Shown here one piece after another: positions 10,044-47,768 of a DNA stretch of 64,000 nt; the stretch's first letter is position 1; the number at the start of each line of letters is the position of its first letter. A program made the position numbers and the translations under genes. The DNA is from an uncultured Rikenellaceae bacterium (GTDB lineage Bacteria > Bacteroidota > Bacteroidia > Bacteroidales > VadinHA17), in assembly GCA_964446825.1 (NCBI GenBank), contig CAYUQR010000001.1, forward strand, positions 94,767 to 158,766. Reading direction: 5' to 3'. A model generated the notes under the pieces. That model was given only the letters and a program-made list of their open reading frames with translations. It searched no databases and had not been told where the DNA came from.

Positions 10044-11144
10044 TTACGGAAGAGGTTCAGATTTTTTAACCGGAGCATTAAATTTCAACATTCTTGAACT
10101 GAAATAAATCGATTTAACATTTCCATCAACATCGGTTTTTTCATTAAGAGCCATTTCCCAGCCAAGTAATTTATTTAGTCCGGTAATTCCGGCTTCTGCT
10201 ATTTCATAAGGCTTAAGGGGAGTATCATTTACTTTTTTCTCTCTGAGGATCTTATCCCTGAATGTTCTTGCGATGAACTTTCCTATATTACTTCTTCCAT
10301 CATCATAATCAATAGCTACAGGAGAAAGAGATGAGGCAATCAACTTGTTTCCTTCAGTTACCTGGAAAAGGTTAATTTCTGCGTGAACCAGGATCTTTAT
10401 AACAGGCATTTCATTATTCCGTGTGTTTGTTCTAAGCGAATCATCTTCTGAATTTGTAAGGGCATCAGGGGGGATATTAGCCGAGATATTTCCTTTTACC
10501 TTATTAAAAGTGTTTTCTTTCTTCCGGTTTGTGACGGCTACTATATTATTTACTACCTGTTTTTCCTGATTAATCTGAAGTTGAGGCCTTTCATTATTAG
10601 TATCAGGTATGATGATTTGAGATGAAATATTTGTTTTTTCAGTGATATTTCGTGGTATAAGAAGCCAGGCTGTGATTATCAAGGCCACAGTTGCAGCAGC
10701 GCTTAATCCTATTACAGACATCCTGATAACTTTTTGAACGTGAGTCCGCTTTATCAGTTGTTTTTTATGTTCGAAATTGACTTTTTGGGGAGTAAGTCGT
10801 GCCTTCTGGATCAGCTCGAAGCTTCTCTTTTTTTCAGGATCATTACCAATGATCGACAAAAGCTCGGTTCTCTGATCATCGGAAAGATCATCCTCAAGGT
10901 AAGCTACACAGAGGTATTCAAATTGAGATACGGAAAGGTCGGGAATGCCCTTTTTAAGCACACTTTTATGCAGGAAAGACTCTTGCGAAGGTATCAGCCT
11001 GAAAGAAGACAATTCTTCAAATTCTTCCCTGATATCAGGGTTTTCATCAAGGAACAGCTTAAGCTCTTCTGCCTGATGATCGCTTAAATTGCCATCGAGC
11101 CAATCAATAATCCATATTTCATAATTTGACCTGTCAATCTGCAT
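10044..11144 (-). CDS. Putative anti-sigma factor (single-pass membrane protein)
   Basis: Starts 3 nt after the sigma gene stop. The N-terminal acidic helical motif occurs twice ('WLDGNLSDHQAEELKLFLDENPD', 'YLEDDLSDDQRTELLSIIGNDPE'). Central TM 'VIGLSAAATVALIITAWLLI'. Confidence 0.55.
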   Translation of the reverse strand: MQIDRSNYEIWIIDWLDGNLSDHQAEELKLFLDENPDIREEFEELSSFRLIPSQESFLHKSVLKKGIPDLSVSQFEYLCVAYLEDDLSDDQRTELLSIIGNDPEKKRSFELIQKARLTPQKVNFEHKKQLIKRTHVQKVIRMSVIGLSAAATVALIITAWLLIPRNITEKTNISSQIIIPDTNNERPQLQINQEKQVVNNIVAVTNRKKENTFNKVKGNISANIPPDALTNSEDDSLRTNTRNNEMPVIKILVHAEINLFQVTEGNKLIASSLSPVAIDYDDGRSNIGKFIARTFRDKILREKKVNDTPLKPYEIAEAGITGLNKLLGWEMALNEKTDVDGNVKSIYFSSRMLKFNAPVKKSEPLP

Positions 11145-11146
11145 AG

Positions 11147-11632
11147 CTATAGGACCGTTTCAATTTTTCCGATATAACATTTAAGTGCAATACGTCCACG
11201 ATAAATGTTTATTTTTACCTGGGCTTCACTCAAACCTGTAATTTCGCCTATTTCTTTATAGCTGTATCCTTCGTAATCCCTTAGCAAAACTGATGTTTTT
11301 TGCTGTTCGGGCAGCCTGTCAAGAGCCTGGTGGAGAATTTCATTAAGATCGCTGTAATGTGAATCATAGATCATCTCCCTGTAATTTGATTCTTCGATGC
11401 TTGTTATTCTTTTTTCTTTTCTTATAATATCAATCATTGTATGATAGGCTGTTGAAAAAAGCCACGATTTAACTACAACGTATTCGATTTCTGCAACATG
11501 TCTCCACAGTTTTTCAAAACTGTCCTGGACAATATCATTAGCCCTGTCTTCATCCTTAAGATTTCCAAGGATGAAGCGGTAAACCGAGTCGGCATACTCT
11601 TCAACAGACCTGTTATATTCCTTAACCGTCAT
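11147..11632 (-). CDS. ECF (sigma-70 family) RNA polymerase sigma factor
   Basis: Region 2 'DIVQDSFEKLW' and region 4 'LRDYEGYSYKEIGEITGLSEAQVKINIYRGR'. I chose the ATG at 11632 (MTVKEYNRS). The track's longer ORF to 11770 runs into the repeat array and looks non-coding. Confidence 0.85.
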   Translation of the reverse strand: MTVKEYNRSVEEYADSVYRFILGNLKDEDRANDIVQDSFEKLWRHVAEIEYVVVKSWLFSTAYHTMIDIIRKEKRITSIEESNYREMIYDSHYSDLNEILHQALDRLPEQQKTSVLLRDYEGYSYKEIGEITGLSEAQVKINIYRGRIALKCYIGKIETVL

Positions 11633-11731
11633 AACATGAATTACAATACAAAGACGGATGAGATTCCGAAAAGTTACAGCTAAGTTAAAATTATTATGGG
11701 AACAGGCGACCGGCAACCGGCACTTCGTGCC

Positions 11732-11932
11732 GTAATTTGCTTCGCTGTAATTTGCCCTTCGTGCCGTCATTTGCCTGCGGCGTCATTCAGTTGTCATTAG
11801 CGCTTCGCGCGTCATTTGGCCCTTTGGGCTGACATTGATAGTAATTAATTATATATCAAAGAATTACTATGATTTACAATTGAATGACCACAGAATGACT
11901 ACCGAATGACAATTGAATGACCAATGAATGAC
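11732..11932. repeat. Quasi-palindromic array of the word GTCATT / AATGAC (7 copies on the left arm, 5 phased copies on the right arm)
   Basis: GAATGAC occurs at 11882, 11893, 11904, 11915 and 11926, an exact 11-bp period. GTMATT words occur at 11732, 11747, 11766, 11782, 11793 and 11811, with GACATT at 11831. AT-rich centre carries AGTAATT/AATTACT. Confidence 0.85.
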
Positions 11933-11969
11933 TTTAGGGCCCAGAGTCTAGTGTCCAGCGTCCAGTGCC

Positions 11970-13583
11970 TTATTTCGGCTGATACACCCTAACCCAGTCT
12001 ATCTCCATGGATGTTATGCCGTTAACAGGCTTATCAAGTCCTCCAGCAAGCAGAACATACATTGGGTCCTGAGGTATTTCTGATGTCTGGGTGGAAACCA
12101 CAGTGTTGTTTATTTTCCAGACAAGCTTATCAGCAGTCCATTCGAGGGTAAAAATATAGAAATTGTTTGCGTATCGCGATCCCAGTGATTTTTTTGTTGC
12201 GTTTTCGTTAGAAGAGAAATAGTCAAACAAGACTTTCCCGTTAGATGTTCTGCAAATATCGATGTGAGGGGTAATCTTATCGGCAAGCATCCAGAAGGCG
12301 TTTTTGGCATTCGGATTTCCAAGCCTGATCTTGGCTGAGAAAATACCATATTTCTGCCTGAAACTGTTACCGGAATTAATAAGTCCTGAGGTATAGCTGA
12401 ATTCTTTTGAGGTAAAGCCGTTAGCTGCTGACCACACCTTGCCATTAACTTTCTGTGGTTTGGTATTTATTTTAAGGATACTATTCCTCAGCTCAAAATT
12501 GTCTTTTTCAGTATATGCCTGAAGATCTGACTCCACAGAATACCTGTCTTTAAGGAGTTTCTCGCCCCAATAGTAATTGGTGAGCCATTTTTTAGTATCA
12601 AGATTATCGTTTTCAAATTCATCGCTGAAAGTCAGTTCTCTGTTTTTTAAAACATTGAATTTGTTGGAATCCTTAATTTTAAAATACCAGATAATATCCG
12701 GATTCTTTTTCAGCTTGTCATACTCCTGCGTCTGTTTGGACATTTCTGTTTTTTCAAATCTCTTTTTATCGAGCAGGTACTCTTTCTTTTCTCTGAATTC
12801 AGGTGAGGCAAGATATTCTTTAAGTTCACCATATCTTGCAAGTCGTGAAGATCCTTCCGTATTGAGGTAATTAGCATACTCTTTTGAAGCCTTGAATTTG
12901 AAATATTCTTTAATATCAGGAGATGCTTTGAGCCTTTTGTATTCCAGAAGCTTTTTATATTCTTCGGTATCTTTGAAAGTAATGGGCTTCATATTCTTTT
13001 TTGCCTGAAATTCAGACGATTTAACCAGTTTATCCAATTCTTCATATCTGAGAACAGTCTTAGTTCTTTTGTTCTCGTCTTTTCCTCCTGTTTTCAGGAA
13101 GGCCTTTATTTCAGGATCCTTTTTAAGGCTTTTATATTCCAGGTATTTGCGGTATTCTTCACTGTCCTTAAAAGTGACAGGTTTCATTTTTTGTTTTCCC
13201 CTGAATTCCGATGATTGTAAAAATTTTTCAAGTTCTTCAAATTCATTTATTTTATCAGAGCCATCCATCTCCTTAAATCTCTTAAGGTAGGTGTTGGAAG
13301 TTGTTTTGAAATAAAGAATGATGTCTTTTGCTTTTCGCAGGGCCGAGAACTCTTTTTCCTTTAAATATTCCTCAGAATTCTTGTACTTTAGAGACTCGAT
13401 CTCTTTTCTTTTATTAACGAAATCTGAAGAATTAACCAATCCATTCAGCTCATTGTATCTTGCCAGCTGATCAGATTCCGAAAAGGCAGTGAGTTTATCA
13501 AATTCAGCAACCAGTGCTTTTTCAGCTTGCTCAATTTTAGAAGTCGATGGGATCATTCCCAGAAGAAGCTTGAGACTTGCCAT
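11970..13583 (-). CDS. K/E-rich repeat protein with C-terminal GH16-like (concanavalin-like) domain, catalytic motif not conserved
   Basis: The C-terminal ~220 aa look GH16-like ('FSDEFE', 'AFWML', 'EIDWVRVYQ'). Four ~50-aa N-terminal repeats ('SSEF..K.MKP.TFKD.EEY.K.LEYK.LK..P.IK'). No signal peptide is evident. Confidence 0.7.
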   Translation of the reverse strand: MASLKLLLGMIPSTSKIEQAEKALVAEFDKLTAFSESDQLARYNELNGLVNSSDFVNKRKEIESLKYKNSEEYLKEKEFSALRKAKDIILYFKTTSNTYLKRFKEMDGSDKINEFEELEKFLQSSEFRGKQKMKPVTFKDSEEYRKYLEYKSLKKDPEIKAFLKTGGKDENKRTKTVLRYEELDKLVKSSEFQAKKNMKPITFKDTEEYKKLLEYKRLKASPDIKEYFKFKASKEYANYLNTEGSSRLARYGELKEYLASPEFREKKEYLLDKKRFEKTEMSKQTQEYDKLKKNPDIIWYFKIKDSNKFNVLKNRELTFSDEFENDNLDTKKWLTNYYWGEKLLKDRYSVESDLQAYTEKDNFELRNSILKINTKPQKVNGKVWSAANGFTSKEFSYTSGLINSGNSFRQKYGIFSAKIRLGNPNAKNAFWMLADKITPHIDICRTSNGKVLFDYFSSNENATKKSLGSRYANNFYIFTLEWTADKLVWKINNTVVSTQTSEIPQDPMYVLLAGGLDKPVNGITSMEIDWVRVYQPK

Positions 13584-45872: not shown

Positions 45873-47768
45873 ATGTTGAAAAAGATTGGCATTATCAGAA
45901 TTTCAATCCTCACACTGGGACTGACATTATTGATTAATAATGCATATAGTCAGGCTGGGATCGATAACGGGACAAGAGCTGTTTTTATTTTTGACATAGC
46001 AAGATATATTGATTATGGTCCCGGATTTGCTGACTCATCCGTTTTCAAAATCGGGATACTCGATAAAAACGAATTCCTGTTTTTCGAATTAGGAAACCTC
46101 AGAAAGACCAGGACAACAATACAAAATAAACCGGTTGAGCTTATCAAATTCAACTCGGAAAGCCAGATAGTCTATACACAACTGCTATATGTTAACAAAG
46201 CAAGTGGGTTTAGTCTGGACAAAGTTAAAGAAGTTATTAAGAATCACCAGACCTTGCTTTTAACGGAAGGGTATGAATTCCGCGAGTCGATGATTAATTT
46301 CATGGGAGTTGAGGGGCAAATGCCAAAATACAGCGTTAATGAAGACCTGATTAACAGCGCCGGGATGAATGTTAATTCAAATATGTTAAATCAGGCGATA
46401 AAAACGAAAGAAGACTGGGAAAATCTTTTTGGCAAGGCAAGCGAAGAGATAATTATCCAGAGAGATACTATTCGTCAGCAACTCGGGATGATAAAGGCAC
46501 AGAAAGAAGAGATACTTCACCAGAAGGCGCTTCTTGACAGTCTCGATAAAGAGATAACTGCAAAGGAAAATACTCTCAATGAAAAACAGAAGATACTCGA
46601 CAGGCAATTTATTCAGATAAGCAGGCAAAAAGGAGAAATATCTGTGCAGAAACAAACTATTATGGTTCAGCAGCAGGAAGTTCAGGTGCAGAAGGATACC
46701 CTTACTAATCAAAAAGAAAAGATAATTCTCCAGCTTGCAAGGATAGATGATCAGCTTAAAAAGATAAACGATCAGGAAAGTAAAATAAAAGTCCAGCTTG
46801 CAACACTGGAAAAACAAAAGCTGATTCTTTATTTTGTCATACTGGCCCTTCTTCTTGTCAGCTTTCTCGGTTATTATATTTACCGGGGGTATAAAATTAA
46901 AAAAGAGGCAAATATAAGACTTGAAGAAAAGAACAGGACAATTTCATTGCAGAAGGATGAAATTGAGAAGCAGCGGGATATTGCTGCTGCACAAAGGGAT
47001 CAGATTGCCTACCAGAAGAAACATATCACCGACAGTATAATGTATGCCAAGAGAATACAGACTGCCCTTATCCCTTCTCTGGAGCTTTTCAGCGATAAAC
47101 TCCAACACTTTGTTTTATATAAACCACTGGCAATAGTAAGTGGTGATTTTTACTGGGTCTCTTCTCAGGGGAATGTACAGATAATAATATCTGCTGACTG
47201 TACAGGCCATGGGGTTCCGGGGGCATTTATGAGTATGCTTGGAGTCACCATGCTGAATGAGATTGTCAATGGGAAACATATCATAATGCCTGACCAGATA
47301 CTCGAAAATTTGCGGCAGGGTGTAATAAAATCATTAAACCAGGTTGCAGAAGAGGATAGTATTAAGGACGGGATGGATATAGCCGTTTGCGTGGTTGATT
47401 TTGATAAAAGCTTATTGTGGTATGCAGGGGCCAACAGCCCTTTGTACCTCGTAAGAGGAGGAGAGCTTATACATTACAGGGCCGATAAGATGCCGGTTGC
47501 AATTCATTATAAGATGGGACCTTTCACTCTAAATAAAATTGATCTTCAGAAAGGCGATGCCTTCTATATCTTTTCAGACGGATATGCCGATCAGTTTGGA
47601 GGACCGAAGCAAAAGAAATACATGTCGATGCAGCTTAAGGAAACTCTTGTTGCCATGGCAGGCAAGCCCATGCTTGAACAGGGAGAACGGTTAAATGAAA
47701 TATTTGAGGAGTGGAAAGGTGATAACTCCCAGGTAGATGATGTAACGCTGATAGGGGTCAGATACTGA
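45873..47768 (+). CDS. Membrane PP2C/SpoIIE phosphatase with periplasmic YfiR-like (DUF4154) domain and Q-rich coiled coil
   Basis: Signal peptide, then a YfiR-like segment ('AVFIFDIARYIDY..KIGIL..LLLTEGYEF..MINF'). Q/K-rich coiled coil, TM 'ILYFVILALLLVSFLGYYIY', and SpoIIE motifs 'GDFYW', 'ADCTGHGVPGAFMSM', 'SDGYADQFG', 'DDVTLIG'. Confidence 0.8.
   Translation: MLKKIGIIRISILTLGLTLLINNAYSQAGIDNGTRAVFIFDIARYIDYGPGFADSSVFKIGILDKNEFLFFELGNLRKTRTTIQNKPVELIKFNSESQIVYTQLLYVNKASGFSLDKVKEVIKNHQTLLLTEGYEFRESMINFMGVEGQMPKYSVNEDLINSAGMNVNSNMLNQAIKTKEDWENLFGKASEEIIIQRDTIRQQLGMIKAQKEEILHQKALLDSLDKEITAKENTLNEKQKILDRQFIQISRQKGEISVQKQTIMVQQQEVQVQKDTLTNQKEKIILQLARIDDQLKKINDQESKIKVQLATLEKQKLILYFVILALLLVSFLGYYIYRGYKIKKEANIRLEEKNRTISLQKDEIEKQRDIAAAQRDQIAYQKKHITDSIMYAKRIQTALIPSLELFSDKLQHFVLYKPLAIVSGDFYWVSSQGNVQIIISADCTGHGVPGAFMSMLGVTMLNEIVNGKHIIMPDQILENLRQGVIKSLNQVAEEDSIKDGMDIAVCVVDFDKSLLWYAGANSPLYLVRGGELIHYRADKMPVAIHYKMGPFTLNKIDLQKGDAFYIFSDGYADQFGGPKQKKYMSMQLKETLVAMAGKPMLEQGERLNEIFEEWKGDNSQVDDVTLIGVRY

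Follow-up and report, generated by a model that had tools for sequence, protein, structure and literature searches.

Inverted arrays of GTCATT/AATGAC words form a dispersed intergenic family that encloses PF05635 genes at other loci and has a copy upstream of an ECF sigma gene in a Rikenellaceae genome

The described system to which the element reported here appears closest, by analogy of architecture, is the intervening sequence (IVS) of 23S rRNA that bears an open reading frame (ORF). In such an IVS, terminal inverted repeats form a stem with an S23p ORF in its loop, and the whole is excised by RNase III; IVSs are known from Coxiella burnetii, Leptospira and Brucella and with Xanthomonas-type S23p, and are considered selfish elements whose RNA matters more than their protein (PMC4990558). 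The Coxiella IVS also contains GACAGAT tandem repeats next to the ORF, the copy number of which differs between strains (PMC4990558). We analysed 64 kb of contig CAYUQR010000001.1 from an uncultured Rikenellaceae bacterium (64,000 nucleotides, referred to below as the window; G+C content ∼39%), in which an array of GTCATT and AATGAC words occupies the 337-bp spacer (11633–11969) between the stop codon of a GH16-family gene and the ATG (11632) of an extracytoplasmic function (ECF) sigma gene. This element belongs to a dispersed, intergenic, copy-number-variable family of inverted word arrays, and the same arms enclose PF05635 genes elsewhere. The region is probably a gene-less copy of this 'word-array hairpin' family and not a dedicated operator of the sigma gene. 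The element resembles an IVS in the long stem formed by terminal inverted repeats, in the PF05635/S23p gene that occupies the loop of gene-bearing relatives, and in short tandem repeats of strain-variable number. Unlike an IVS, it is located between protein-coding genes (by Rfam, neither the window nor any of 20 related loci contains rRNA), its stem is built of tandem word arrays with side mini-hairpins instead of a unique 28-bp inverted repeat, and the window copy has no ORF in the loop. Because it lies outside 23S rRNA and lacks an ORF, we liken it to an IVS stem and do not class it as an IVS.

Two other groups of repeats are comparable. TAACTGA heptamer repeats of unknown function have been described in Beggiatoaceae, Cyanobacteria and Bacteroidetes (PMC4679880). 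The family shares with these and with the short tandemly repeated repetitive (STRR) sequences the occurrence of intergenic short-word arrays in several phyla, one-unit indels between strains and contigs that end in repeats. It differs in its 11-bp unit of seven conserved and four variable bases and, relative to the repeats as described in PMC4679880, in its inverted pairs, its covarying mini-hairpins and the bracketing of PF05635 genes. True heptamers flank the window element at 11701–11722 and 11941–11967, and the heptamer within the element is spaced at 11 bp. Repetitive extragenic palindromes (REPs) are imperfect palindromes of 20–40 bp, one end of which bears a GTAG or CGTC tag (PMC3733652). 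REPs in bacterial interspersed mosaic elements (BIMEs) and in REPINs are mobilised by RAYTs (REP-associated tyrosine transposases), and the roles proposed are termination and mRNA stabilisation. The family is similarly intergenic, palindromic and multi-copy and forms composite mosaics. In contrast to REP/BIME sequences, its palindromes are 7–15 nt long, carry no GTAG/CGTC tag and lie within tandem word arrays, where they have ..ATT-N before them or GTCATT behind them, and among the matches listed in our genome scan no RAYT gene or recurrent transposase stands beside the arrays. Unexplained intergenic heptamer repeats in Bacteroidetes and cyanobacteria and IVSs with S23p ORFs were thus already known. 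Provisionally, as literature coverage was incomplete, we found no description of a GAATGAC 11-mer family and no paper that links PF05635 genes outside rRNA to flanking inverted tandem word arrays: a search with the sequence words returned only unrelated primers and eukaryotic repeats, and a search for PF05635, TIGR02436 or S23p together with repeats returned only the Coxiella IVS paper and reviews of diversity-generating retroelements.

The element is composed of two arms in inverted orientation around an AT-rich centre. The coordinates that the first-pass annotation of this DNA had given for the GAATGAC array, the left-arm words, the mini-hairpins and the 337-bp spacer all hold, and two of the mini-hairpin sites below are additions to it. 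The parts of the element, the outer repeats and the neighbouring genes are as follows:

11861–11932, plus strand: 'plain' arm, in which GAATGAC is repeated exactly, every 11 bp, in five units (11882–11932), with two degenerate inner units.
11837–11860, no strand assigned: AT-rich centre, the loop of the large hairpin, with an inner inverted repeat AGTAATT (11840–11846) / AATTACT (11863–11869).
11732–11836, plus strand: 'hairpin' arm, with GTAATT at 11732 and 11747, GTCATT at 11766, 11782, 11793 and 11811, and GACATT at 11831.
11718–11732, plus strand: mini-hairpin CGGCAC-TTC-GTGCCG, which on the minus strand reads C-GAA-G, a GNA triloop.
11739–11745, plus strand: GCTTCGC, exactly complementary to the mini-hairpin d(GCGAAGC) (added).
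11773–11781, plus strand: mini-hairpin GCC-TGC-GGC, abutting the next GTCATT word (added).
11800–11810, plus strand: mini-hairpin GCGC-TTC-GCGC, abutting the next GTCATT word.
11819–11829, plus strand: mini-hairpin GCCC-TTT-GGGC.
11701–11722, plus strand: outer short tandem repeat, 3.1 copies of AACCGGC, on the promoter side of the element.
11941–11967, plus strand: outer short tandem repeat immediately downstream of the GH16 stop codon, whose heptamers read GGACGCT/GGACACT on the minus strand.
11970–13583, minus strand: GH16-family gene, the upstream neighbour of the element.
11147–11632, minus strand: ECF sigma gene, the downstream neighbour of the element.

In the plain arm, the plus-strand GAATGAC words start at 11882, 11893, 11904, 11915 and 11926 and are separated by the linkers CACA, TACC, AATT and CAAT; Tandem Repeats Finder (TRF) reports a period of 11 with 4.7 copies at 11881–11932. 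With this exact period the direct repeats are phased on one helical face. On the minus (sense) strand the arm reads GTCATTC-N4. It is prolonged inward by the degenerate units GAATTAC (11861) and GATTTAC (11871), and the inner inverted repeat of the centre, in which there is no ORF, merges into the first of them. The words of the hairpin arm are separated either by 5 nt or by one base and a GC-rich palindrome. Complementarity between the arms is 88–94% over 17 nt, and in the predicted fold the outer repeat at 11701–11722 pairs in part with that at 11941–11967. With both strands counted, the window contains GAATGAC 14 times (9.5 expected), at a frequency of ∼10^-4 per position; by our own arithmetic, four more matches at exact +11 steps therefore have a probability of the order of 10^-16, which excludes chance. 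No other site in the window has at least three such words within 100 bp. The word GTCATTTGC near 45.8 kb (45816), for which a chance occurrence had already been considered possible, is compatible with chance (two copies in the window against 0.72 expected, and at least two in 13 of 100 shuffles). The sole other tandem repeat of the window has a 21-bp unit in 2.1 copies (46731–46775, CAGCTTAAAAAGATAAACGAT). Rfam gave no match for the window, for the spacer at E ≤ 1 or for 20 related loci, and the 11-bp period together with the lack of a model match excludes a CRISPR, a tRNA or a riboswitch.

The distribution of the array was determined in 185,579 genomes, one per species, which were scanned for GAATGAC-N4-GAATGAC-N4-GAATGAC. 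The pattern was found at a minimum of 119 loci, and the source genome of the window is not among them. The statements on arrays in this paragraph refer to the matches listed. Most of them come from environmental metagenome-assembled genomes (MAGs) of Bacteroidales, Bacteroidota or Ignavibacteria, and several genomes supply two to four loci each. Many arrays are at contig ends; similarly, a Logan contig of the same strain as the window has its start within the left arm, a break typical of assemblies at repeats. Together with the window, 125 of 135 arrays lie outside ORFs of at least 100 amino acids (aa), in any orientation relative to the neighbours, and the number of units reaches 16 or more. 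The word is constant and the linkers are non-random, mostly N-A-Y-Y up to the G with which the next word starts. At loci other than the window, identical units also follow one another in runs, and double units of 22 bp are present. A composite organisation as in the window, with at least two GTCATT words within 200 bp upstream of the array, was observed for 28 of the 135 arrays (downstream, 5 of 135). Many dispersed copies unrelated to gene context had been named at the outset as the sign of a generic repeat family, and this is what the scan returned. Viral contigs contained only 10 matches among 2.9 million, so a phage origin was rejected. Recurrent neighbours other than PF05635 were limited to response-regulator domains and spurious ORFs derived from the repeats; when translated, the latter cluster as a false 'protein family' (VIRLSF, HSMVIQW). 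The listed loci (L001–L119) are also rich in other short tandem repeats, with 468 non-redundant TRF arrays in 831 kb, among which periods of 7, 8 and 9 are common and nearly every unit is different. In the planctomycete loci L003, L006 and L069 the order of the arms is opposite to that in the Bacteroidota loci. One of them, a Gemmataceae contig (L006:455-760), has AATGAC...GTCATT hairpins with GC-rich linkers that separate tRNA-Thr, tRNA-Arg and tRNA-Cys genes, the tRNA-Arg gene being bracketed by GTCATT...AATGAC; this single case hints at an RNA-processing context across phyla.

Analysis of the spacing between words revealed two types of unit. The plain unit is a word followed by 4–5 nt (10–11 bp period), and the hairpin unit is a word followed by one base and a 2–5 bp GC-rich palindrome with a 3-nt loop, which ends exactly at the next word. 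The GTCATT-to-GTCATT gaps accordingly fall in classes of 5 nt (526 gaps), 4 nt (37), 1 nt (33, a true 7-bp spacing of the same word) and 8, 10, 12 or 14 nt. Among 31 distinct 12-nt units, selected by length alone, 18 are perfect 4-bp palindromes (∼0.1 expected), 15 of which have a T-N-C loop. When the 12-nt class was aligned, 91% of the cells were paired, compared with 65% in shuffles (none of 500 reached 91%) and 23–57% in slid controls, and the covariation score was 0.667 against 0.22. On the complementary strand the loops of the family read G-N-A closed by C-G, which is the motif of extra-stable DNA mini-hairpins (PMC13037366). The TTC, TGC and TAC loops closed by C-G are the complements of the GAA, GCA and GTA loops of d(GCGNAGC), and GCGAAGC itself is present on the minus strand at 11739–11745; the natural examples described in PMC13037366, unlike the family, are single hairpins with a priming or promoter role in phages and plasmids and not chromosomal repeat units. 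The window follows the same grammar. Its GTCATT arm is 5′ of its AATGAC arm, it has at least three words at a 10–11 bp period, and the units at 11773–11781 and 11800–11810 consist of the word, one nucleotide and a palindrome with a T-N-C loop; the unit at the latter position, GTCATTAGCGCTTCGCGCGTCATT, has an identical counterpart in the family set. Nested between the words of some arrays there is another small palindrome, whose core is CGCTAAAGCT (CCACCGAAGCTTTAGCGGAGGTGG, for instance), with 10 exact matches in 223 loci against ∼2 expected (L127:5363-5372, L077:5889-5898, L009:1696-1705, L154:1317-1326 and 1986-1995).

When the ORFs that adjoin the listed arrays were clustered, one recurrent real neighbour was apparent, a protein of ∼120 aa that matches PF05635, '23S rRNA-intervening sequence protein' (IVP), and TIGR02436, 'four helix bundle protein'. 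The sole solved relative is 2GSC, and members of this protein family are pentameric toroids (2GSC). In L002, L025, L032 and L084 the gene is located between a 5′ GTCATTC array and a 3′ AATGAC array with G-N-A mini-hairpins, the arms being 413–471 bp apart, and in L051 a frameshifted PF05635 copy is flanked by arrays. At L031:5630-6035 a distance of 297 bp separates the GTCATT and AATGAC arms, and no PF05635 gene can be recognised in it; this locus may be a decayed cassette or may carry a different cargo.

The association was also tested in the reverse direction. Metagenome contigs were scanned with the PF05635 alignment, and 80 loci (L144–L223) were kept with 300 bp on each side. Upstream of the genes there are 220 GTCATT and 39 AATGAC words, downstream 255 AATGAC and 14 GTCATT, and 42 of the 80 loci have two or more words on both sides. 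The signal weakens below ∼50% identity to the query, where other words are found in the same inverted layout (GTAATT/AATTAC, a variant that also occurs in the window, GGTTAAT, TAGGAAA, GGTCAGAT, GATATT and GGTTCATT). The commonest upstream 6-mer has at least three copies in 57 of 67 PF05635 loci; its reverse complement recurs downstream in 35 of these and its direct copy in 2, and control windows 650–900 bp away gave 0 of 12. At most of the 80 loci the PF05635 gene is co-oriented with both neighbours and ∼130–140 bp from each. In L084, L154, L161, L174 and L178 a conserved leader GTGCTAAAAGG(A/T)T directly precedes the ATG. The plain arm of the window aligns with 87–94% identity to the arrays upstream of PF05635 genes in L149, L160, L167, L155 and L150, and its hairpin arm can be aligned with the arrays that follow the PF05635 genes of L161 and L174, so the arms of the window match those of the cassettes on corresponding sides.

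Folding of the RNA is in agreement with a long stem. The sense-strand RNA of the window has a predicted energy of −89.6 kcal/mol (z = −4.5), and the RNA of a gene-bearing cassette (L160:735-1400) folds with z = −7.6 into a stem of its 5′ and 3′ arrays that surrounds the ORF. The long imperfect RNA hairpin that had been offered as one of three explanations of the region is therefore plausible. In the family alignment, G.T (G.U) and A.C counts in the mini-hairpins are balanced and do not tell the folding strand apart. No terminator-like hairpin with a T-run is present on the minus (sense) strand between 11400 and 12200, from which we infer read-through from the GH16 gene.

The behaviour of the element at a single genomic position was followed in orthologous contigs, reached via homologues of the 366-aa protein encoded after the sigma gene. 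All have the gene order GH16, sigma, 366-aa protein, outer-membrane protein (OMP) and are annotated as Bacteroidia or Bacteroidales MAGs. The GH16-to-sigma spacers, and the promoter candidate that lies in the window spacer, are as follows:

Window: 337 bp, five plain units.
L128: 339 bp, sequence near-identical to the window.
L121, L122 and L124: 230 bp, two units.
L127: 426 bp, 4+4 units and additional hairpins.
L125 and L126: 129 bp, no element, a simple hairpin in its place.
L132 (more distant): 124 bp, no element, a canonical terminator-like hairpin at the equivalent position.
L129 and L131 (more distant): 236–237 bp, no element, a different palindromic repeat.
11653–11678, minus strand: candidate ECF-type promoter of the sigma gene, outside the element; TGTAAC (11678–11673), 16 nt, CGTC (11656–11653) into TTTG.

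The sequence TGTAAC-N16-CGTCTTTG does not vary among eight orthologous spacers, the element-less ones included; in the window it precedes the sigma ATG (11632) by ∼20 nt. Since AAC-N16-CGT is a known pattern of ECF promoters, TGTAAC-N16-CGTC is read as a −35/−10 pair, and it is probably an autoregulated ECF-type promoter of the sigma gene. The promoter is fixed while the element is absent or varies in its units; the element is therefore dispensable and unstable, which argues against a dedicated operator. The outer repeat at 11941–11967 is kept in the element-bearing relatives and is gone together with the element in L125. In L129:3276-3512 and L131:3277-3512 the different palindromic repeat has GGATTGCTTCGTCGCTTCGCTTCTCGCAAGGAC on one side opposite GTCATTGCGAGCCCGACGAAGGAGGGCGTGGCAATCC and GTCATT at its end; the GH16-to-sigma spacer seems to be a favoured home of repeat elements. 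In the window the sigma gene is followed by the gene of the 366-aa protein, which has no Pfam match (10044–11144, minus strand, after a gap of 2 nt), and then by that of an outer-membrane beta-barrel protein. The 366-aa protein has 949 homologues at E ≤ 10^-10, all of ∼366 aa and always in the order given above; it evolves faster than its neighbours and is presumably an anti-sigma factor.

Of the readings that had been proposed for the region, a decayed miniature repeat element came closest, with the reservation that 'decayed' is wrong, as the family is active and well formed and has a strict grammar. If the region is a gene-less copy, the element, which lies between two co-oriented genes, would probably be transcribed by read-through from GH16, and the resulting RNA would fold into an imperfect stem of ∼200 nt with side hairpins. 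A stem made of tandem words would still pair after slippage in either arm, so that the number of units could drift (0, 2, 5 or 8 in the relatives) while the hairpin persists. The local effect would most likely be structural, either as a double-stranded RNA processing site of the RNase III type, as for IVSs, or as a 3′-end or insulator hairpin between GH16 and the sigma operon; the element may also have no effect.

Several points weigh against the interpretation as a gene-less copy. Neither the centre of the element nor any other part of the 64 kb contains a PF05635 gene or remnant (tblastn with six PF05635 proteins); the derivation from a gene-bearing cassette is thus suggested by the shared arms, and the opposite history, in which arrays came first and genes nested in them, fits equally well. 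The sample found with the DNA pattern is conditioned on the GAATGAC word itself. In gene-less composites elsewhere the hairpin arm is on either side relative to the flanking genes, a mixed polarity that makes its comparison with transcription uninformative, and the wobble pairs do not point to one strand; a role of one strand at the RNA level is therefore putative. In the comparison of the window with L128, the element is 96–98% identical (97–98% over 11785–11983) and the flanking coding DNA only 66–93%, and the step in identity falls right at the GH16 stop codon. This pattern fits purifying selection on a local function or recent exchange, and simple neutrality does not account for it; independent acquisition could be another explanation. 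Within 11882–11932 there are no substitutions, and three of the four substitutions at predicted paired positions retain a G.U pair on the sense strand, a sample too small to decide.

The alternative that survives best is neutral expansion of simple sequence, in which slipped-strand replication and template switching generated a functionless quasi-palindrome with no kinship to PF05635 cassettes, like the cyanobacterial STRR heptamers. The varying number of units in the relatives, the identical adjacent units and 22-bp double units at other loci and the abundance of other 7–9 bp tandem repeats in the same genomes speak for such a process, and heptamer repeats without known function have been described in Bacteroidetes and cyanobacteria (PMC4679880). 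We nevertheless consider it unlikely, as the same word and unit grammar with covarying mini-hairpins recurs in more than 100 genomes, the word is constant while the linkers vary, the inverted layout is strongly polar around PF05635 genes, and the element is better conserved than its flanks between the window and L128.

A non-autonomous transposon similar to a miniature inverted-repeat transposable element, whose arms bind a transposase or HUH nuclease encoded elsewhere and whose mini-hairpins serve as recognition elements in single strands, is improbable. The inverted word arms, the dispersed multi-copy distribution and the contig breaks resemble those of such elements, GNA-type mini-hairpins are extra-stable in single-stranded DNA, and recent mobility would produce a near-identical element in two diverged backgrounds, as in the window and L128. 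However, among the matches listed no transposase recurs beside the arrays, REP-type GTAG/CGTC tags are absent, and the length of the arms changes in situ at orthologous sites. Neither a target-site duplication nor a direct repeat at the borders nor a clean empty site can be seen; as the divergence of the element-less L125 extends across its entire spacer, this relative gives no boundaries.

Control of the sigma/anti-sigma operon by a regulator that polymerises on the phased GAATGAC words, such as an OmpR/PhoB-type response regulator or a ParR-like (R1 parC) ribbon-helix-helix protein, is very unlikely. The first-pass annotation had raised such a same-face operator, and the array does have the location and form for it: it is upstream of the sigma gene, it is unusually conserved between the window and L128, and its exact 11-bp period with seven conserved and four variable bases is the architecture of PHO-box direct-repeat units and parC iterons. 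With the boxes of PhoB/PhoP and the iterons of ParR it further shares phasing by one helical turn and five units in a row. Unlike them, it is dispersed, highly variable in its units and paired with an inverted arm, and it is not conserved with the promoter. The same operon with an identical promoter is found in close relatives with two, eight or no units, and ∼200 bp separate the array from the conserved TGTAAC-N16-CGTC downstream of it. More than 100 unrelated sites between genes have the same arrays, in any orientation and at the upper end with 16 units or more, and such arrays flank PF05635 genes as inverted pairs. The alignment of orthologous spacers, in which the units are absent or number two, five or eight, speaks against this proposal. 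Binding of the array, as DNA or RNA, by the PF05635 four-helix-bundle protein or another trans-acting factor, with gene-less arrays as outposts of a genome-wide network, is attractive but the most improbable of the alternatives: every PF05635 gene has word arrays of its own on both sides, with words that differ between loci, the proteins are pentameric, and GAATGAC arrays bracket tRNA genes in a planctomycete, but co-inheritance alone accounts for the pairing of protein and word, the Coxiella S23p protein is probably not even made, and the window encodes no PF05635 protein.

A broader and speculative hypothesis, which we put forward with a good deal of doubt, is that PF05635 genes and inverted short-word arrays constitute one widespread class of IVS-like cassettes, located in intergenic DNA of Bacteroidota and other phyla and not only in 23S rRNA. 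The enigmatic 7–11 bp intergenic repeats would then be the arms of such cassettes and what is left of them without a gene; a trans-acting factor, be it the pentameric four-helix-bundle protein or an enzyme of RNA processing, would read the words, and copies such as that in the window would be programmable sites of RNA processing or insulation.

If the region is a gene-less copy of the family, a tempting but wrong regulatory model of the sigma gene is removed: between the array and the gene lies a conserved sequence that is probably the gene's own ECF-type promoter, and close relatives do without the array. The existence of the repeat family explains why assemblies break at such sites. Two old puzzles may also connect, namely what the short tandem repeats between genes are in Bacteroidota and cyanobacteria-like genomes and what the 23S rRNA IVSs with S23p/four-helix-bundle ORFs are, and the inverted pairs of word arrays around PF05635 genes at sites other than rRNA provide a concrete and testable unit composed of stem, ORF and word.

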